Positions 37,957-61,454 of a stretch of 64,000 nucleotides of DNA are shown here, in pieces (positions within the stretch are counted from its first letter, which is position 1; each line of letters opens with the position of its first letter). A program made the position numbers and the translations under genes. A model generated the notes under the pieces. That model had not been told where the DNA came from, ran no database searches, and saw nothing but the letters and a program-made list of their open reading frames with translations. Location of the stretch: NCBI RefSeq assembly GCF_988243305.1, contig NZ_OZ547136.1. One strand, 5' to 3'.

Positions 37957-38307
37957 AGATGCTCAGCAGAATCCCCCACATCCTGAAGGAGGTGTATTCA
38001 GACAGGCATCCCACCTGACTTCGAATGATGATTATTCATCACTATAGAGAGCATTGATTCTAAGTGTCATATGAAAGTTCCAATTGATATATATCAAACA
38101 AAATAACCCTGATTAATGAATTATTACGTTTATCATGTTAATTCATCATTATTACATCATCATTGTAAATAATTAAATTAACTTCCATAACATTAAAATA
38201 TGTATCCACTGACGCTTTTTTACATAACGAAGAATTGACCATTTTGTCCTGTTGTGCCTTAATGTAAGTACCGTCCACTGCGTGGGACATACTTCAAGGA
38301 ACCTTTT

Positions 38308-38499: not shown

Positions 38500-38809
38500 C
38501 GGTTACCTTCTCCACTTTTACAGAACATAACGGCACCTCGCTGTCGGATGCTTTTGCTCTTTGGGATTATCAAAGCGGCAGATATTCTTTCATCTTAAAT
38601 TTTACGTCTTTGTCCTGACTGATGTTTATCCTGTTTGGCTGCGAAATAAATATAAAATTAACACATATATTTTAATGATGTATTTTTATAAATTATTTCC
38701 CACATGAATTTTAATAAATTTAATCTATTCCTTTATACGCAATACATTTACTTTCCTCTTTTGATGATCTTAAATATCTTATTTTTCGTAATGTGTATAA
38801 CAAGGAATA

Positions 38810-39328
38810 GTGATGAAATTTAAAAAATGTCTTCTGCCTGTGGCAATGTTAGCGTCATTCACTCTGGCAGGATGCCAGTCAAATGCTGATGATCATGCCG
38901 CCGATGTTTATCAAACCGATCAACTGAATACCAAACAAGAAACTAAAACCGTTAATATTATTTCCATTCTTCCCGCAAAAGTTGCCGTAGACAACTCCCA
39001 AAATAAACGAAACGCACAAGCCTTCGGCGCGCTTATTGGTGCAGTCGCTGGCGGTGTTATTGGCCACAACGTCGGGTCTGGCAGCAATTCCGGAACGACG
39101 GCAGGTGCAGTTGGCGGCGGAGCTGTTGGCGCGGCAGCGGGTTCTATGGTGAATGATAAAACCTTAGTGGAAGGTGTTTCTCTAACGTATAAGGAAGGCA
39201 CCAAAGTGTATACCTCCACCCAGGTGGGTAAAGAGTGCCAGTTTACGACAGGTTTAGCCGTTGTTATTACCACGACGTATAACGAAACGCGTATTCAGCC
39301 AAATACCAAATGTCCTGAAAAGAGCTAA
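38810..39328 (+). CDS. yfgH: outer membrane lipoprotein YfgH (glycine-zipper)
   Basis: 172-aa ORF with lipobox LAGCQS and a Gly-rich glycine-zipper region. Confidence 0.8.
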   Translation: MMKFKKCLLPVAMLASFTLAGCQSNADDHAADVYQTDQLNTKQETKTVNIISILPAKVAVDNSQNKRNAQAFGALIGAVAGGVIGHNVGSGSNSGTTAGAVGGGAVGAAAGSMVNDKTLVEGVSLTYKEGTKVYTSTQVGKECQFTTGLAVVITTTYNETRIQPNTKCPEKS

Positions 39329-39954: not shown

Positions 39955-40210
39955 CATTCATAGTGCAGGGATCAAAATCATTCCCACTCAGCTATCAATG
40001 AGAAAATAAAATATAAATAAATCAATGCCTTGAAACAAACCACTTAGCAGATACCACGAAAAATACCATGTCTCAATAATAGAGCTGTCTACAGGCTGTT
40101 CAGACGAACAATATGGCCGCTCTACTCCTAATAGAGTCCTTAGCTCGGTCACATCACTAATTTCAACATAGATGTGAACAAAATGAGGCATCAACGCACC
40201 TATTCAGTTA

Positions 40211-41725
40211 GTGTATTTGATATCGTATGTGGCAACAAAAAATGGAGTTACAATCTTGAAAGTAAGCGAGTTATCTAGCCAAATTGGCCGACTTTACGGC
40301 TTAAACAACATCAACATAATTATGGGCCGAAACGGTGCGGGAAAAAGTCGTTTCCTTCGTGATATCGAACAAACAATCAGCCAGAACAAGCAGCAATTTT
40401 ATGTCCGGTATGTAAGTCCAGAGCGAGCAGGATCGTTCAAGCGTGATGGCACCGTCCTCACAAATATGAGCGACAACCCCGAATGGCTGAGGCACACTCG
40501 GGCAGTTAATCAGGCAAGCAACTTCAAAGCTGCATCGGCTATGCTATTTCGCGAGGCCGAGACGCTTTACTTACGTCGACTTGCCAATACTCCGGAAATT
40601 CGAACTGATCTAACGCGAAACTTTCAGACAGACCGATTAAGTAAAATTAATCAGCTTCTCACTAACATTTCGCTCGAGATGGGTAATGTCGATTATGAGT
40701 TTCGATCACTTGTAGATGGTCAGATTATTGATCCGGCCCAAATCAGTAGCGGTGAATCGGAAGCGGTTGCATTAGCCGCGGAAATCATCTATTTCTTCGA
40801 CACAATAGATCCGGAGAAATTCAACGTACTCCTCCTCGATGAGCCTGATGTACATCTGCACCCCGACCTCCAAGCTAGACTGGGCAAGCTGATAATCAGT
40901 ATGCTCGACGAATTTAGAACACACGCGAACAGTATTGCCATATGCTTATCCACCCATAGTTCCCCGCTCGTCTGTTCTCTTGCCGCCTCCCCATATGTAT
41001 CAATCGGCACGAAGAGCTTTGCAGTGAATGAAATCTCATTGATACCGGCCAGCGATGAACTTCGAAAGATTGCACCATTCTTCGGGCACCCCCTATCGCT
41101 TTCTCTTAGCGAAGACGCTGCATTAATTTTGGAAGGAGAGGACGACGAACGAGTCTGGCAACAAGCGGCCAGAACATCACAGGGTCGAATAAAAATCTTT
41201 CCCGTACTAGCAGGTAGCGTAGATCAACAGAGTCAACTTGAGGATTTTTGCGTAGACCTCCTTAGTACACTCTATGACAATCCAATCGCCTTTTCCCTTC
41301 GTGATGGCGATGGTGTAATCAACGAGTCGCTTGAACATCGCCTACCTCTTAAACGCTATCGCTTACGATGCTACGCTATCGAAAATGTTCTTTTGACTGA
41401 TTCATGCCTTGCAGTAATGAATGTTACATGGGTGGAATTTGTAGACGCAGCCAAAAAATGGGTTGAGGATAATCAAACACACTCCGACATAGCGTTGATT
41501 GCAGAACTAATGGAATCGAACGACCGATTGCGTCACAAGAAGATCAAGAAAATCCGCCAACTCGTCTGTGCTATTGTTGAGTGTAAAAAACCTTGGGAGG
41601 TAGTAGTTGGACAAGCAATCGGGGCATTGACCAGAGAAGACCTTGAAAACTCGAATATGTTGATCGATTTTCTTGGAGGAGAGATGGTCAGCGACGTCAT
41701 CTTCAGGGACGCAATAAACCCATGA
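40211..41725 (+). CDS. ABC-type (AAA_21-like) ATPase with C-terminal TOPRIM/DUF4435-like acidic region; candidate OLD/PARIS-like anti-phage nuclease (accessory)
   Basis: Walker A GRNGAGKS, signature-like ISSGESEA, Walker B/D-loop LLLDEPDVHLHPDLQ, H-loop LSTHS; C-terminal about 200 aa carry LEGEDDE and RDGDG acidic motifs; no TM segments; probable true start TTG at 40256 preceded by ggag. Confidence 0.55.
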   Translation: MYLISYVATKNGVTILKVSELSSQIGRLYGLNNINIIMGRNGAGKSRFLRDIEQTISQNKQQFYVRYVSPERAGSFKRDGTVLTNMSDNPEWLRHTRAVNQASNFKAASAMLFREAETLYLRRLANTPEIRTDLTRNFQTDRLSKINQLLTNISLEMGNVDYEFRSLVDGQIIDPAQISSGESEAVALAAEIIYFFDTIDPEKFNVLLLDEPDVHLHPDLQARLGKLIISMLDEFRTHANSIAICLSTHSSPLVCSLAASPYVSIGTKSFAVNEISLIPASDELRKIAPFFGHPLSLSLSEDAALILEGEDDERVWQQAARTSQGRIKIFPVLAGSVDQQSQLEDFCVDLLSTLYDNPIAFSLRDGDGVINESLEHRLPLKRYRLRCYAIENVLLTDSCLAVMNVTWVEFVDAAKKWVEDNQTHSDIALIAELMESNDRLRHKKIKKIRQLVCAIVECKKPWEVVVGQAIGALTREDLENSNMLIDFLGGEMVSDVIFRDAINP

Positions 41726-41740
41726 GAATGACCTGATACT

Positions 41741-42136
41741 ATGACCACGATTGATCCGCCCTCATGGTATCAGTATTTATTTTATAACCCGCCTCTCAAT
41801 ACACCAAGAGATTGCGGTAAAGTGGAGCAGCATGATTACCAGCTTTATCTGGCGATAAATGATATTGAGCATACGAAAACGAAAGCAATGTCATCTAAGA
41901 CCAATAGTATCTGCGAGCAGTTCCATAAAACGATACTGAACGAGTTTTATCAGGTGACGTTCCGCAAAAAGTTATATGATGATCTTGAAGCATTACAATC
42001 GGTTCTTGATGAATGGCGGGTTCACTATAATAATGAGCGAACCCATCAGGGAAAAATGTGCAGTGGCCGAACGCCGATGGAAACGTTACTTGATGGAAAG
42101 CACATCTGGGATGAGAAAAACTTAAGCCAGATGTAA
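41741..42136 (+). pseudogene. remnant of a DDE (rve integrase-core) transposase, C-terminal fragment
   Basis: 131-aa ORF containing ...TNSICEQFHKTILNEF...WRVHYNNERTHQGKMCSGRTPMETL, the characteristic C-terminal segment of rve-type transposases; no N-terminal HTH or full DDE triad. Confidence 0.6.
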
Positions 42137-42229
42137 TCTGACAGATACCTTTATAAATAGCCGGTAATTGTCAGATCAGGTCTGATCTTATACAACTTAA
42201 CTGTGTTATGAGCAATACTGAGGATAGAT

Positions 42230-43000
42230 ATGGAACCAGAGAAATTTGCTGAAACTGCAATAGGATTTACCAAAAGCCCTCTTGGTATCATTGCACTCTT
42301 TATTGTTCTCGTTTATGGATTTGCCTCTTTCGTCGTTGGCTTTGGTAATGGCTTATCAGAGCATATAGCTCCCCTTATTTATTTCATGGTTTTCTTTCCT
42401 GTCATTGTGTTTCTTGGCTTTCTCTGGCTTGTTGCGAAACATCATAATAAGCTTTACGGGCCGTCAGATTTCAAAGATGAAAATAATTTTTTAAGAGCGC
42501 AAATAGCTACAGCAGCATCATTGACCGCCGCCACAGCAAAACAGCCTGAAAATAGTGCAGGGGTCACTGAAAGCCAACTGCGAAAAATCGTCAACGTTGT
42601 ATCCAATGCAAAACGGCAGAGTAAGCATGAAAAATGGCGAAATCGTATTTTATGGGTGGATGATCGACCAGAAAATAATGTTTACGAAAGACAGGCATTT
42701 GAGGCACAGGGAATAGAGTTCGCTTTAGCTCTTTCAACTGACGAAGCCTTAGAATTGTTAAAAACAAATAAGTTTGCAGCTATTATTTCGGATATGGATC
42801 GCAAAGAAGGGGCGCAAGAAGGTTATGTCTTACTAGAAAGATTACGCGCAATGGGAGACAAAACTCCTTTTATGATCTATGCGTCCTCAGATCTACCAGA
42901 GCACAAGAAAATGGCGAGAGAAAGAGGTGCAATTGGCTCCACTAATCGAGCAGAAGAACTCTTTCAAATTGTCATGGGTGCGATTACCAATGGCTCATAA
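42230..43000 (+). CDS. membrane-anchored stand-alone receiver (REC/CheY-like) domain protein (accessory)
   Basis: ATG preceded by gagga; two predicted TM helices near the N-terminus; C-terminal about 120 aa align by eye to CheY (ILWVDDRPEN / ISDMDR / TPFMIYASS); AT-rich codon usage. Confidence 0.55.
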   Translation: MEPEKFAETAIGFTKSPLGIIALFIVLVYGFASFVVGFGNGLSEHIAPLIYFMVFFPVIVFLGFLWLVAKHHNKLYGPSDFKDENNFLRAQIATAASLTAATAKQPENSAGVTESQLRKIVNVVSNAKRQSKHEKWRNRILWVDDRPENNVYERQAFEAQGIEFALALSTDEALELLKTNKFAAIISDMDRKEGAQEGYVLLERLRAMGDKTPFMIYASSDLPEHKKMARERGAIGSTNRAEELFQIVMGAITNGS

Positions 43001-43220
43001 CAAAGCCATTAAATTCGCCCCCTACGGCTACGGTTGCCGGGCGCTCACAACGGCCAGTATCTCATTTGTCGATTTGATCGATCTCATTGTAAGCACTTCC
43101 GGCTAGACTATTTTGGAATACCGCCATTTTGTTGGTAATGGCTTTTATCTTTAGGCCATAGCCGATGTTATAGAGTTACGGCCTTAAAAATAGAAGTCAT
43201 ACACTCAATGAAAAACCAAT

Positions 43221-43250
43221 AAAAAATGCCAGTCAGCAAACTGACTGGCA
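43221..43250 (-). terminator. intrinsic terminator of guaA
   Basis: On the minus strand tgccagtcagtttgctgactggcatttttt: 10-bp stem plus a U-run immediately after the guaA stop. Confidence 0.7.
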
Positions 43251-43294
43251 TTAAAGTTAGTTGGAAAGGCTTAATTTACTATTTATAGCCAGTC

Positions 43295-44872
43295 CTACTC
43301 CCACTCAATGGTAGCTGGCGGCTTGCCGCTGATGTCATACACCACGCGGGAAATACCGTTCACTTCATTGATAATGCGGTTGGAAACGCGACCGAGGAAG
43401 TCATACGGCAGGTGCGCCCAGTGTGCGGTCATAAAGTCGATGGTTTCGACAGCACGCAGAGAAACAACCCAGTCATACTTACGACCATCGCCCATTACGC
43501 CAACAGAACGTACTGGCAGGAAGACGGTGAACGCCTGGCTGACTTTGTCGTACAGGTCCGCTTTACGCAGTTCTTCAATGAAGATGGCGTCAGCACGGCG
43601 CAGCAGGTCACAGTACTCTTTCTTCACTTCACCCAGAACACGAACGCCAAGGCCTGGTCCCGGGAACGGGTGACGGTACAGCATGTCGTACGGCAGGCCC
43701 AGCTCCAGACCAATCTTACGCACTTCGTCTTTGAACAGCTCTTTCAGCGGTTCAACCAGGCCCATCTTCATCTCTTTCGGCAGGCCGCCCACGTTGTGGT
43801 GAGATTTGATGACGTGTGCTTTACCGGTTGCAGAAGCAGCAGATTCGATAACGTCAGGGTAGATAGTGCCCTGCGCCAGCCACTTCACGTCTTCCAGTTT
43901 CAGCGCTTCTTCATCGAATACTTCAACGAAAACGCGCCCGATGATTTTACGTTTTGCTTCCGGATCATTTTCGCCAGCCAGCGCTGACAAGAAGCGATCT
44001 TCTGCCGGTACATGAACAATGTTCAGACCAAAGTGATCGCCAAACATATCCAGAACCTGCTCTGCTTCGTTGAGACGCAGCAGGCCGTTGTCGACGAATA
44101 CGCAAGTCAGGTTTTTACCGATAGCGCGGTGCAGCAGCATTGCAGTCACGGAGGAATCCACGCCACCAGAGAGGCCGAGGATCACTTTATCGTCGCCTAC
44201 CTGCTCGCGGATGCGAGCTACGGCGTCGTCGATAATTTTCGCTGGCGTCCACAGGGCTTCACACTGGCAGATATCACGCACAAAACGCTCCAGCATGCGC
44301 ATACCCTGGCGGGTGTGAGTCACTTCCGGATGGAACTGTACACCATAGAAGCGTTTTTCTTCGTTAGCCATAATGGCAAACGGGCAGCTTTCGGTGCTGG
44401 CTACGGTGACGAAGTCGGACGGGATAGCGGTAACTTTATCGCCGTGGCTCATCCAGACATCGAGCAGCGGTTTACCGTCTGCAGTCAGCGCATCTTCGAT
44501 ACCGCGAACCAGTGCGCTGTCGTTTACGACTTCAACCTGCGCGTAGCCAAATTCACGTTCGTTAGAGGCTTCAACGTGACCGCCCAACTGCATTGCCATG
44601 GTCTGCATGCCATAGCAAACGCCGAATACCGGTACGCCTGCTTCAAAGACATACTGCGGCGCACGCGGGCTGTTTTCTTCGGTGGTGCTTTCCGGGCCGC
44701 CGGAAAGAATAATGCCGCTTGGGTTGAAGTCACGAATTTGTGCTTCTGTCACATCCCACGCCCACAGTTCGCAGTAAACACCCAGTTCACGCACGCGGCG
44801 CGCAACCAGTTGAGTGTACTGAGAACCGAAGTCCAGAATGAGGATGCGATGCTTATGAATGTTTTCCGTCAT
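43295..44872 (-). CDS. guaA: GMP synthase (glutamine-hydrolysing)
   Basis: 525-aa ORF with an N-terminal class-I glutamine amidotransferase and a C-terminal ATP-pyrophosphatase (SGGVDSS). Confidence 0.95.
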
Positions 44873-56167: not shown

Positions 56168-57145
56168 TTATTTGTGTTTGTAAATAATGTGAAGTTTGTA
56201 CCCCTGTACCCCGTCGCCGTTGGTCGGGATGGTAAGAGCTTCTTTACCATCGCGCGCAGGGCCGTTAAGGTTGGTTCTGGCGTCTTCGTTGGTCGCAGGG
56301 ATGACCAGATTGTTATTATCGAAGCTTGAGTTAACGATACCACCCGAGGTGCCGAGCTGTTGGCTACTCCCAGAAAGTACCCAACGGAAATCATAATTGG
56401 CGGTAACGTCAGCATCGGTACCCGCATCAAACTTGCCGTTTTTGTTCTCATCCGAGTACAGTTTGGCCACGTAGGTTTTGCCAAGTTCGATTGGCGTGCT
56501 GCCGTTGATAAGGTTGATACTGGTACCATCAACAAAGATGGCGACTTTCAGGTTCTGGTTAACCACCGGCCCTGGCGCAACGTTGTCGCTGTCGCTTCCG
56601 CCGCCGCTGGCAGTGGAAATGTCATAAAGATGCAGCGCAGTCCCGACGTTTGGCGTACCGGTCTGCGTGGTTGGCGTAATTTCAATACCGATATAACGAC
56701 CACGGTCGTCATCGGTAAGAGTGTAACTGGTCACCTTCGTTGCCAGCTCTTTTGGATCGTTACCCTGAGCGTCCTTGTAGCTCATCCAGCGGATAGTATC
56801 GATAGTTTTCGCGTTATCGCCCAATACCCCAAGATCCACGTCGCCTTCGGTATCACCAATTTCCCAACTTACGGTTAATTTATCACCCGAGTAAAGACGC
56901 TTGTCCGTTTCACTGCCTGTCGGGCGAGCGCCTTTTAGATCAGAAGTCAACGTTACATGGTCGGCATCTGTCGTAGCGCTTCCCCCTTCCGAATAGAGCC
57001 ACGGAATGGTTCCCTGGAAAATATTGGTTTCGCCGCTGTCGACCCAGGCGCTTTCTTCCGCCAGCGCCACAGGTGCCACACAATAACCTGCCAGTGCCAG
57101 CGCCAATGCGATCCGGGTCAGACCGCGTCTTTTATCCTGCTTCAT
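56168..57145 (-). CDS. SinI-like secreted protein (paralogous to the SinH passenger C-terminus)
   Basis: 325-aa ORF with a signal peptide; C-terminus LVIPATNEDARTNLNGPARDGKEALTIPTNGDGVQGYKLHIIYKHK parallels the SinH-like C-terminus; N-terminal motif EESAWVDSGETNIFQGTIP resembles the start of the giant protein. Confidence 0.65.
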   Translation of the reverse strand: MKQDKRRGLTRIALALALAGYCVAPVALAEESAWVDSGETNIFQGTIPWLYSEGGSATTDADHVTLTSDLKGARPTGSETDKRLYSGDKLTVSWEIGDTEGDVDLGVLGDNAKTIDTIRWMSYKDAQGNDPKELATKVTSYTLTDDDRGRYIGIEITPTTQTGTPNVGTALHLYDISTASGGGSDSDNVAPGPVVNQNLKVAIFVDGTSINLINGSTPIELGKTYVAKLYSDENKNGKFDAGTDADVTANYDFRWVLSGSSQQLGTSGGIVNSSFDNNNLVIPATNEDARTNLNGPARDGKEALTIPTNGDGVQGYKLHIIYKHK

Positions 57146-57199: not shown

Positions 57200-59407
57200 T
57201 TATTTTTTGGTATACAGCACGCGTAAACCGTATCCCTGCAAGCCATCTCCCGCTTGTGCGCCATAGGTTTGCGCTGCTTCGCGGTTAGTGGCCGGAATCA
57301 CAATGTCCTCATTGGAAGTGTTCGCCTGTGCACCCACTTCACCATTGATGCTCTTGCCGGTAAATTCCCACTTGTAGTCGTACTGCGCCATCTCTTCGTC
57401 AGTCAGTTTTTCGACCTGCTGGAAGACACCGTCTTTATTGCTGTCACGCCACAAAACAAATCGATAAGTGTTGTTGAGCGGCAGCGGTTCTTTATCTTTA
57501 CCTATCAGGTTGCTGGGTTTAGCTGCCCCCACACGATAGATAAATGCATTTAGCCCACCAATTTCTGCCCCGAGGAAAGTGACATCCACATAGTTACTGT
57601 CGTCGTAGGGCGCAGCTTTTGCTTTCCAGCGATAGGTGCCGGGTAAGGTACTGGAGAGGGTGACAGTGCCCTTTTCTTTATCTTGTTTAGCGATAAAAAC
57701 GCAGGGGTTGTCGGTCGAGCAAGGCTTGTTGGTTAACGTCACTCGTTTGTCCTGCGCGTCGTAAAGCTGCGGCGTGAGGTTATCTTCCGGCAGCGCATCG
57801 CCATTGCGGTCGGTGTTATCGCCAAAGCTGTCGGTTACATCGAGATCCATCACCACACCATCAACGCCATCTGCCTGAGCGCTGGCTTCGTGGCTGTGGT
57901 TGTTCTCTTCCGGCACGTTCGCGATGTTATTAACAATCAACTCTATTTTACGGTCCTGCTGAACGGTGATTTCCACCACGCCAGAGTTCTGTCGGTTGCC
58001 CTTTTCATCTTCCAGTGCCAGACGTACTCGCCAGGTATTGAGTTTTTCTTGTTCGGCTTTGTCAGAGCTGTACTGCCAGGCGGGCAGCACCAGGTTCCAG
58101 TGGTTATTGTTACCCTCTGTCAGGGTATTCTCTTTGATAACCGGCATAACCAACGTGCGGGCAGCATTGTTTTTCGCCTGCCATGACGCAGCGACAATTT
58201 TGTAGTGGTGGTTGATAAGCGCGTTAATGGTCCACTTACATTTTTCCAGCCCGACGGCCGCTTCGGGAGTGTCCTTAATGACGCACTCAGGGTGCTCGTT
58301 GGTGGCATCCGCTTTTAACCACAGGGTGACATCAAGCGGATCTTTTTCTTTGTATTCCAGAACAATAAAGTTATTACGCTCAACAAAATCATGACGACTG
58401 CCCATCAACGAGTGAGCCGCTTTCACTTTATCGCTATCCAATTGATCTTTTAGCGGAACGCCGAACTGATAATTAAGAGTGGCATTAATGCTGACATCGC
58501 TGTTATCTCCGGTCCCCGCTTTATAGTCCGCCCCAACGGTTAGTAATGGCACCGGTTGATAATTCAGTCCAAGTGTTACCGCGTAGGGATCTTTCTCCAA
58601 ATTATCCGTACCAAAAAGGGCGACTTCATCGCCGTAATATTGCTCGAAGACAACTTTGCCCCCCAGTTGCGGATAAGAAGGTAACCAGGCTTCGGCACGA
58701 ATATCCCAGCCGCGCGCAGGGCGTTCTTCATAAAAGCCGAAATCTTCAGAGTCTTTCCAGTCAGAAAGCGGATGATAATAGTTGCCAGAGAATTTTAAAT
58801 AATCAGTCCACGCTTCGCCGCCTAAACCTAAACGGCGATGTCCTCGGGTAAAATCATAATCATAAAATACATTTCCACCCAATAACCATTCATTAAAATT
58901 ATGTCTTACCCCAAGACCAATATTCCCGATTGTACGATCTTCTTTTCGTTGCGCAGAAAATTGACTGAAATAAACAGTGGTTTGATTATCGTACCAGGGA
59001 ACAAAATAATCGATGGAACTGCCATCCAGATCGCCGCCCTGGCCAATGGAGAGGTTCGAACGGACCTTACCGTAGGGAGAGAGAGTGTCTTCAATATAAG
59101 ATTGTGCGGTTGAGATGATTTGACTTTGCAGATAGCTTCTGGCCTGAGATTCCAGCGCCTCAGGGGTCAAGTTTTCAAACCCTTGCGTGGCGGAGTTGAT
59201 GACGTAATCGGCTCCGCGCTCTTTCAGCGATTTACCCTTGTTGGTTTGTTCATCCCGCTGTGCTGCCTGGCTACCTAAATCAGGTAACGATTCGTTTTGC
59301 TTAACATTTATCTCTGGTGCCGCGAAAGCAGCACCAGAGATAAATGTTAGAATAATACAGCGTTTCCATCGCAGCATGCACTTTCCCTGTGACAATGATA
59401 CAGTCAA
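57200..59407 (-). CDS. intimin/invasin-family inverse autotransporter, SinH-like
   Basis: 735-aa ORF; probable start at the internal Met (MLRWKRCIILTFISGAAFA signal peptide); N-terminal half has alternating beta-strand patterns typical of the intimin/invasin barrel (GLGVRHNF, LNYQPVPLLTVGADYK), followed by a passenger domain. Confidence 0.75.
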   Translation of the reverse strand: MTVSLSQGKCMLRWKRCIILTFISGAAFAAPEINVKQNESLPDLGSQAAQRDEQTNKGKSLKERGADYVINSATQGFENLTPEALESQARSYLQSQIISTAQSYIEDTLSPYGKVRSNLSIGQGGDLDGSSIDYFVPWYDNQTTVYFSQFSAQRKEDRTIGNIGLGVRHNFNEWLLGGNVFYDYDFTRGHRRLGLGGEAWTDYLKFSGNYYHPLSDWKDSEDFGFYEERPARGWDIRAEAWLPSYPQLGGKVVFEQYYGDEVALFGTDNLEKDPYAVTLGLNYQPVPLLTVGADYKAGTGDNSDVSINATLNYQFGVPLKDQLDSDKVKAAHSLMGSRHDFVERNNFIVLEYKEKDPLDVTLWLKADATNEHPECVIKDTPEAAVGLEKCKWTINALINHHYKIVAASWQAKNNAARTLVMPVIKENTLTEGNNNHWNLVLPAWQYSSDKAEQEKLNTWRVRLALEDEKGNRQNSGVVEITVQQDRKIELIVNNIANVPEENNHSHEASAQADGVDGVVMDLDVTDSFGDNTDRNGDALPEDNLTPQLYDAQDKRVTLTNKPCSTDNPCVFIAKQDKEKGTVTLSSTLPGTYRWKAKAAPYDDSNYVDVTFLGAEIGGLNAFIYRVGAAKPSNLIGKDKEPLPLNNTYRFVLWRDSNKDGVFQQVEKLTDEEMAQYDYKWEFTGKSINGEVGAQANTSNEDIVIPATNREAAQTYGAQAGDGLQGYGLRVLYTKK

Positions 59408-59586
59408 AAATAAGCTTTAATATTGTATCCCTGATTATTCAGAAAGGCATGTCATAAAGAATAAATATATTCTTAATTATTTAAATTAGTGATTTCACTC
59501 AATTACATTAGTTATTCCACTAATAACAGATTGTTTTACCATTCACATATTAAATATAAATGATAAAACAATATATTCACATGATA

Positions 59587-59802
59587 TTAAGCAATAACAA
59601 ATTCAACGCGTTTTTTAGATATTAAACCGTGCCCATGTTGGCAAAAATAGTCCACAGCACCACAAGCTTTTAACACTTGTAACGGCTGATGACACTCAGG
59701 GCAAAGTGCCTGGACGGTAAAGTCTTTGTCGCAAGTTGCACAGTGGGCAGTCTCGCCATTGCGTTCGAGAGGGGTTTTGCAGATTGGACAGTTGAGTGCC
59801 AT
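59587..59802 (-). CDS. yfgJ: zinc-ribbon protein YfgJ
   Basis: 71-aa ORF with two CxxC pairs (CPIC...CATC and CPEC...CQHGH). Confidence 0.8.
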   Translation of the reverse strand: MALNCPICKTPLERNGETAHCATCDKDFTVQALCPECHQPLQVLKACGAVDYFCQHGHGLISKKRVEFVIA

Positions 59803-59864
59803 AAATACTCCTCGCGTGTTATTCGGTTTCCCTCTCCGTGTGGAAAGGGAAACCAGATAAGTGA

Positions 59865-61337
59865 TTACTTACTTTTCTTGATATGCTTCATCAGGCGCTT
59901 ACGCTTGCGCATCTGGGTTGGCGTCAGGGTATTACGCTTGTTCGCATACGGGTTTTCCCCTTCTTTGAACTGAATACGAATCGGCGATCCCATTACGTCC
60001 AGCGATTTGCGGAAGTAGTTCATCAGGTAACGCTTGTAGGAATCAGGCAGGTCTTTCACCTGGTTACCATGAATCACCACAATCGGCGGGTTATAACCAC
60101 CGGCGTGGGCATATTTCAGCTTCACACGACGACCGCGTACCAGCGGCGGTTGGTGATCTTCAACAGCCATCGTCATGATGCGCGTCAGCATAGAGGTCCC
60201 CACACGACGGGTGGAGCTGTCATACGCTTCACGCACTGATTCAAACAAGTTACCAACACCACTGCCGTGCAAGGCAGAGATAAAGTGCACACGAGCAAAA
60301 TCGATAAAGCCCAGACGGAAGTCCAGCGTTTCTTTCACCTGCTCTTTCACTTCCTGGCTCAGGCCATCCCACTTATTCACCACAATGACAAGTGAGCGCC
60401 CACTATTGAGAATAAAGCCCAGCAGGGAGAGATCCTGATCGGAAATACCTTCGCGGGCGTCAATCACCAACATCACCACGTTGGCATCTTCAATGGCCTG
60501 CAACGTTTTGATTACCGAGAATTTCTCTACAGCATCGGTGATTTTGCCACGTTTACGTACGCCAGCGGTGTCAATGAGCACATACTCACGTCCATCGCGT
60601 TCCATTGGAATGTAGATACTGTCACGCGTCGTACCAGGCATGTCATAAACAACAACGCGCTCTTCACCAAGAATACGGTTAGTGAGTGTAGACTTACCTA
60701 CGTTCGGACGACCCACAATCGCCAGTTTGATCGGCAGACTTTGCGGGTCGAAGTCGTCTTCCTCTTCTTCTTCGCCGTTTTCTTCTGCTTCAAATTGCGC
60801 CCAGTATTCGGCGTCTTCGTCGACTTCTTCTTGCGGTGCGAGATCTTCCATCCACGGCAGCAGCACGTGCTCCAGCAGACTTAATACGCCACGACCGTGA
60901 GACGCGGCGATCGGGTAGATTTCCCCTAAACCAAGCGAGTAGAAATCAACCACTGCCTGATCGGGATCCAGACCGTCAGTTTTGTTTGCCACCAGGAAGG
61001 TCGGTTTTTCACGGGAGCGCAGATGTTTAGCAATCGCTTCATCCGCCGGCATCAGGCCCGCGCGCGCATCCACCATAAACAGTACGACGTCCGCTTCTTC
61101 AATCGCCAGCAGCGACTGTTCCGCCATGCGGGTTTCTACACCGTCTTCTGTGCCATCAATCCCGCCGGTATCAATGCAGATAAACTCACGGCCTTCAATT
61201 TCTGCACGACCGTACTTACGGTCACGAGTCAGACCCGGGAAATCCGCAACCAGCGCATCTCGGGTGCGAGTTAGACGGTTAAATAACGTGGATTTTCCTA
61301 CGTTAGGGCGCCCGACAAGCGCGACCACAGGTACCAT
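59865..61337 (-). CDS. der: ribosome-associated GTPase Der (EngA), tandem GTPase domains
   Basis: ORF 59865..61376; start at the internal Met ([17 protein letters not shown]); two G1 motifs GRPNVGKS plus a KH-like C-terminus; 490 aa. Confidence 0.9.
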
Positions 61338-61454
61338 GTTTAAAGCCTCATTTTTATAAATCATCAGACAACGCACGCTATATTCGTGTCGTTGTTAAAA
61401 ACAGGAAAACGGCCCCTGTCCAGGAGCCGTTTTCAAAGTGAACGACAGAGACGA

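Follow-up and report, generated by a model that had tools for sequence, protein, structure and literature searches.

Is the AT-rich DNA ahead of the adhesin gene sinH a promoter held silent by H-NS, and if so, how is that promoter built? As SinH is both a vaccine candidate and a fitness factor of ExPEC, the timing and manner of its expression bear on its use as an antigen. We examined this locus in a 64,000-nucleotide stretch of contig NZ_OZ547136.1 (RefSeq assembly GCF_988243305.1), referred to here as the window, for which an earlier note had proposed that the tract between yfgJ and sinH is a silenced or regulated promoter. That reading proved right in substance, mostly on published data from orthologous loci. 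With a probability of about 0.8, we consider the tract to be the regulatory spacer and promoter of sinH, coated by H-NS and StpA and silenced in ordinary culture.

The sinH locus and its AT-rich spacer

The window is part of an E. coli chromosome. The minus-strand order is hisS, yfgM, bamB, der, yfgJ, the AT-rich spacer, sinH, a SinI-family gene, and an 8-kb adhesion-domain gene, which is followed by xseA on the plus strand (Table 1). The tract lies downstream of yfgJ and upstream of sinH, both of which are carried on the minus strand. The 401 bases around it are 100% identical to those of Escherichia coli Res13-Lact-PER13-34 (O169:H41) and 99.8% identical to those of EAEC 042, and this 401-nt stretch was found in 1,680 of 5,426 complete E. 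coli genomes. K-12 has no yfgJ-sinH spacer; xseA and yfgJ overlap there by 4 nt. When aligned, the sinH-linked yfgJ allele is strongly diverged from K-12 yfgJ, with a 5′ half that is barely alignable and a 3′ half at roughly 85 to 90% identity, and the 3′ end of xseA also differs from K-12 (59587-59870 versus the K-12 counterpart). The sinH haplotype therefore reaches past a simple insertion point. In E. coli FY10, an IS5-like ISKpn26 element stands in place of the spacer and the sinH 5′ end, and sinH is a pseudogene.

The extreme AT-richness that had drawn attention to the tract was borne out. Positions 59408-59586 have 21.2% GC (whole window, 51.2%), a value as low as this occurs in only 48 of 63,822 windows of 179 bp, and the two AT runs singled out by the earlier note are present, at 59462 and 59548. 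The borders needed partial correction: the tract does lie between the yfgJ stop (59587) and sinH, but its sinH-side border, 59407, is the TTG of the longest open reading frame. RefSeq places the sinH start at ATG 59377 in an identical record, and we adopt this start because of its conserved Shine-Dalgarno sequence and the conserved N terminus MLRWKR/MVQWMR. The corrected yfgJ-sinH spacer comprises 59378-59586 (209 bp, 24.4% GC). At 75.6% AT, the tract ranks in the top 0.3% of equal-sized windows, and its density of TpA steps (0.134; mean, 0.044) ranks in the top 0.17%. Ten intergenic spacers of the neighborhood have 38 to 70% GC, versus 24% for this one.

Three other patches in the window fall below 30% GC (37992-38291, 38538-38873, and 1-320); the two near 38 kb are the pdeF/c3022 and yfgG-yfgH spacers. 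Elsewhere, a 3.3-kb insertion between yfgI and guaA (39990-43299), absent from CFT073, is possibly a small defense islet. Its products include an AAA_15/AAA_21 ATPase that weakly matches the defense ATPases PDC-M01A, AriA, PtuA, and GajA and a receiver-domain membrane protein, and it also carries the remnant of a transposase. Within the yfgJ-sinH spacer, the only small open reading frames encode 21 to 24 amino acids and lie in a stretch that is not alignable between lineages. A scan of 58500-60500 against Rfam 15 gave no match above the gathering score, the only matches being chance ones to microRNA models (19 to 26 bits, against thresholds of 67 to 95).

TABLE 1 Genes and sequence elements at the yfgJ-sinH junction, with positions in the window
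Feature	Position	Strand	Description
der	59865-61376	minus	5′ of yfgJ
yfgJ	59587-59802	minus	Zinc-ribbon protein, 71 aa; RefSeq zinc ribbon domain protein; Pfam Zn_ribbon_6, E 7e-30
AU-rich 19-bp stem-loop	59530-59572	minus	Starts 15 nt past yfgJ stop, then CUGUUAUUAG; inverted repeat I2
Two 19-nt direct repeats	59481-59521	minus	AGTGGAATAACTAATGTAA / AGTGAAATCACTAATTTAA (sense); 22 bp apart; family D1, 84% identity
Block A, 18 bp	59461-59478	minus	AATTAAGAATATATTTAT; cross-genus consensus TTTTTAgGAATnTATTTAG
-35-like hexamer ATGCCT	59445-59450	minus	3/6 matches; 17 bp upstream of -10; weighted promoter scan
Predicted -10 TACAAT	59422-59427	minus	Cross-genus consensus ATAnAAT; local identity maximum
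Shine-Dalgarno AGGGA	59384-59388	minus	6 nt before ATG 59377; conserved as a-GGa in 22-sequence alignment
sinH (iatB)	57200-59377	minus	Intimin-like inverse autotransporter, 725 aa; Pfam IAT_beta, E 7e-108; homologues named SinH
22-bp stem, 4-nt loop, sense RNA	59302-59349	minus	sinH codons 10-26, ORF nt +29 to +76; inverted repeat I1
SinI-family gene	56168-57145	minus	After sinH

Conserved and allele-specific elements of the spacer

We compared the sinH loci of other Escherichia species, Salmonella, Citrobacter, Pseudocitrobacter, and Superficieibacter and of further E. coli lineages, including CFT073. In all of these loci except one, yfgJ lies directly upstream of sinH. Across five genera the spacer measures 192 to 236 bp at 21 to 30% GC, except that in two of the three Salmonella loci it carries a GC-rich REP-like insert and reaches 333 to 345 bp. 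In the main Salmonella lineage this insert is palindromic and comes right after yfgJ. The sinH locus is old and syntenic in several enterobacterial genera and is not a recent acquisition. Mean pairwise identity within Escherichia is 53 to 77% in the spacer versus 80 to 90% in the flanking genes, and between genera only block A, the -10-like element, and the Shine-Dalgarno sequence can be aligned in it. These features of composition, anatomy, and conservation were established directly from the sequences compared.

The position of TACAAT is the only one at which a -10-like hexamer is conserved across all genera compared; the -35-like hexamer is not conserved across them. Block A is conserved in all five genera (Escherichia, Salmonella, Citrobacter, Superficieibacter, and Pseudocitrobacter) within otherwise unalignable spacer sequence, and it forms a local identity maximum within Escherichia. 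Taking the -10 as a reference, we predict that sinH transcription starts at 59415-59416, which would give a 5′ untranslated region of ∼38 nt. Block A would then span approximately -62 to -45, a range where activators or UP elements act, and its position and conservation make it a candidate activator or UP-like site. A strict consensus scan of 59100-59900 returned no sigma-70 promoter and no terminator; the former is explained by the poor -35 hexamer.

Candidate regulators of block A were considered by eye. The RcsAB box has the consensus TaAGaatatTCctA, whose right half-site carries a conserved T10 and C11; the left half of block A fits it (TAAGAAT or TAGGAAT), but positions 10 and 11 are A and T. 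Nor did block A or the direct repeats resemble SlyA, IHF, or CRP sites well when compared by eye. The direct repeats lie just upstream of block A, at approximately -65 to -105 from the predicted start, and each has internal dyad symmetry. In the Escherichia alignment they are absent outside window-type E. coli alleles, and they are possible regulator sites.

On the yfgJ side of the spacer, the AU-rich stem-loop gives a predicted fold of -25.6 kcal/mol for minus-strand 59500-59600 (z = -4.7), and other alleles and genera have a different hairpin at the same place after yfgJ. This stem-loop is a candidate weak terminator of the der-yfgJ transcript. Its stem is almost all A-U and only 5 of the 10 nt in its tail, CUGUUAUUAG, are U, so that it falls short of an intrinsic terminator, and the near-absence of G-C pairs explains why the consensus terminator scan missed it. 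These observations raise the question of whether the tract is mainly a 3′ termination zone for the housekeeping der-yfgJ operon, its AT-richness aiding termination by a weak hairpin together with Rho, with sinH transcribed mostly by regulated read-through. The shared orientation of yfgJ and sinH, the hairpins found after yfgJ in several genera, and scans that detected neither a canonical terminator nor a canonical promoter are all compatible with such an arrangement. We nevertheless regard it as unlikely. The -10, the upstream block, and the Shine-Dalgarno sequence are conserved in five genera and occupy the sinH-proximal half, a sigma-70 ChIP-exo peak has been assigned to sinH in Salmonella (PMC11770342), and a fusion to the iatB promoter on the chromosome is responsive to LeuO (PMC6714894). 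Termination could account for at most the distal ∼60 bp of the spacer.

Because adhesin genes are often phase variable and an 11-nt imperfect inverted repeat (I3) flanks the region, we also considered a phase-variable switch operating through Dam/OxyR methylation, a slipped-strand repeat, or an invertible element. The spacer lacks GATC sites and has no homopolymer longer than 5 nucleotides, and one arm of I3 lies inside the sinH coding sequence. Moreover, in 1,676 of the 1,680 E. coli genomes the 401-nt query gave a single collinear alignment over at least 80% of its length, so that no inverted copies were seen. A switch of this kind is hardly credible.

Occupancy and expression at orthologous loci

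A search of 59378-59586 for the high-affinity H-NS motif TCGATAAATT, allowing up to 2 mismatches, gave no match; this nucleation motif is not obligatory for H-NS binding. The earlier note's claim of H-NS binding can be checked against published ChIP data, in which the orthologous loci of CFT073 and Salmonella 14028S are bound. Hustmyer et al. (2022; PMC9765446) mapped H-NS and StpA by ChIP-seq in UPEC CFT073, whose spacer matches that of the window at 203 of 209 positions; the H-NS values given here are from the part of their Data set S1E, a list of H-NS-bound genes, covered by our analysis, with a cut-off of 0.07. H-NS occupancy of CFT073 sinH (2178 nt) is 0.116 in the wild type, 0.111 in delta-rfaH, and 0.112 in delta-stpA, falling to 0.063 in delta-hns and 0.033 in delta-hns delta-stpA. 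The corresponding values for c3032 (216 nt) are 0.407, 0.331, 0.422, 0.207, and 0.090, and it is called bound in all five strains. We take c3032 as yfgJ on account of its length and its position in the bound-gene list, which in the part covered runs yfgH, sinH, c3032, yphF. StpA occupancy is 0.100 on sinH and 0.367 on c3032, both called bound. H-NS is thus ∼3.5 times higher on c3032, which abuts the spacer, than on average over sinH, which fits a peak centered on the AT-rich tract.

The earlier note had considered the adhesin island probably cryptic. H-NS binding is called locally, for sinH and yfgJ; the downstream island genes are absent from the part of the bound-gene list covered here. The two low-GC patches near 38 kb serve as an internal control: they fall on c3022, yfgG, and yfgH, which in the same part of the data are also H-NS bound in CFT073. 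In Salmonella Typhimurium 14028S, ChIP-mini (PMC11770342) assigned to sinH both a 1.1-kb H-NS region (H-NS_Region_365, 2701924-2703062), whose intensity was 1.15 in extracellular bacteria and 0.92 inside macrophages, and, outside macrophages only, a weak sigma-70 peak (RpoD_Peak_1213, 2702490-2702541); gene-length arithmetic places these peaks only roughly relative to the sinH ATG.

The prediction that sinH would be cryptic under laboratory conditions is likewise borne out in orthologues. IatB, the SMS-3-5 orthologue of SinH, was undetectable in LB or M9 at 28, 37, or 42°C (Goh et al. 2019; PMC6714894), and sinH RNA of Salmonella 14028S is low outside macrophages (∼1.6) compared with inside (∼15; log2 2.15) (PMC11770342). 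There is a mismatch in the Salmonella data, in that the sigma-70 peak is seen outside macrophages only but sinH RNA is higher inside. In SMS-3-5, a screen of ∼30,000 Tn5 mutants of an iatB::lacZ strain yielded 12 up-mutants, all with insertions upstream of and reading into leuO, and overproduction of LeuO raised both iatB promoter activity and transcript, yet the protein was still not seen (PMC6714894). LeuO is an H-NS antagonist according to literature cited by Goh et al. (PMC6714894). No hns insertions were recovered among the up-mutants (PMC6714894); back-up silencing could explain this, since StpA is still on the locus in delta-hns CFT073. Our search of the literature yielded no measurement of sinH expression in an hns mutant.

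Could the AT-richness instead be the product of neutral drift, with H-NS binding incidental to a weak promoter that simply needs a specific activator? The poor -35, the resemblance of block A to an activator site, the absence of hns mutants from the screen, and the lack of a high-affinity H-NS motif in the spacer would all suit this explanation. Drift is less easily reconciled with a GC content far below that of the neighboring spacers, or with the maintenance of 21 to 30% GC in lineages whose spacers no longer align. H-NS and StpA occupancy has, in addition, been measured and is strong beside the spacer in the part of the CFT073 data covered (PMC9765446), and LeuO, the sole activator found, is itself the H-NS antagonist noted above (PMC6714894). 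We consider drift improbable, slightly more so than a termination zone, and favor a spacer that serves as an H-NS/StpA-coated promoter.

The architecture that we propose for this coated promoter is as follows. In its distal part the spacer would take in the 3′ end of the transcript from der-yfgJ and the weak AU-rich hairpin. Next would come DNA that is little conserved and extremely rich in AT and TpA, and then the conserved 18-bp upstream block. The sigma-70 promoter proximal to sinH would combine a good -10 (TACAAT) with a poor -35. H-NS and StpA would coat the spacer and spread a few hundred base pairs to either side, over yfgJ and over the 5′ end of sinH, where AT content is higher, and this coating would keep the weak sinH promoter shut in ordinary culture. 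Expression would need a counter-silencer or activator, such as overproduced LeuO, or host conditions. We infer that H-NS is the cause of sinH silence from occupancy, the LeuO effect, and the lack of expression, all three taken from the literature on orthologues.

The coding hairpin and known systems

A second structure lies beyond the start codon, in the signal-peptide codons of sinH. The minus-strand sequence 59280-59420 has a predicted fold of -50.6 kcal/mol (z = -6.4), which includes a long hairpin in the sense RNA (Table 1). All Escherichia alleles keep this hairpin, and other genera keep a shorter inner stem. In Escherichia albertii, two neighboring pairs are each changed on both sides (A-U to G-C and U-A to C-G), so that the amino acids differ but the pairing is kept, and U-G or G-U pairs, workable only in the sense RNA, occur in several E. 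coli alleles. The sense fold is more stable than the antisense fold in 23 of 25 loci, which is partly an effect of composition. In a 23-sequence alignment, 73.7% of cells are paired versus 34 to 51% with slid partners, and the covariation score is 0.291 versus at most 0.14 in controls, with none of 500 shuffles reaching the observed value; these figures apply to related sequences and to a structure drawn from one of the sequences tested. RNAalifold returned no structure over all 23 sequences. As the long hairpin is confined to Escherichia, we used a 14-sequence subset from four genera, which gave a consensus stem of 13 bp in which 5 pairs are compensated.

We tentatively suggest, at less than even odds, that selection has kept the hairpin as an element of post-transcriptional control, such as a site for RNase III or a barrier to translation. 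Such a brake could account for the rise in iatB transcript without visible protein under LeuO overproduction. If the suggestion is correct, the hairpin would be a second lock on top of the H-NS-silenced promoter, and it may limit SinH output even when transcription is on.

Overall, the tract is probably an ordinary H-NS/StpA-coated, LeuO-responsive adhesin promoter of a kind already visible in public data sets, and its analysis leaves knowledge of H-NS silencing unchanged. What is new is the promoter map, the pattern of conservation across genera, and the coding-region hairpin; the analysis links the AT-rich feature with published ChIP and genetic results and gives a promoter map that can be tested.

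Two of the closest comparisons are with sinH itself in other backgrounds. iatB of SMS-3-5 is sinH under another name (725 aa), silent in the laboratory and raised by LeuO, and the evidence there consists of expression and LeuO genetics (PMC6714894). Salmonella enterica sinH (sivH), in the CS54 island, has the same order of der, yfgJ, spacer, sinH, sinI, and a large Ig-repeat adhesin. Its promoter shares block A and the -10 (TATAAT), is H-NS bound, is barely expressed in culture, and is induced in macrophages. The main Salmonella lineage differs in its 345-bp spacer, which has the GC-rich REP-like insert and 34% GC, and in the coding hairpin, of which it has a 6-bp remnant only.

Among other genes, E. 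coli fdeC (eaeH) is reportedly "regulated by H-NS and temperature," in the wording of a 2014 title by Easton et al. (PMC4249167). Like sinH, it encodes an inverse autotransporter, but it has a different locus and promoter, and the likeness in regulation is drawn from that title alone. The E. coli loci bgl, yjjQ-bglJ, and casABCDE are AT-rich, coated by H-NS and StpA, silent in culture, and turned on by LeuO overproduction, and both derepression by hns mutation and footprints of LeuO have been demonstrated for them. The sinH promoter resembles these systems in its AT-richness, its coating, and its response to LeuO, a resemblance known for sinH from occupancy and the LeuO effect only.
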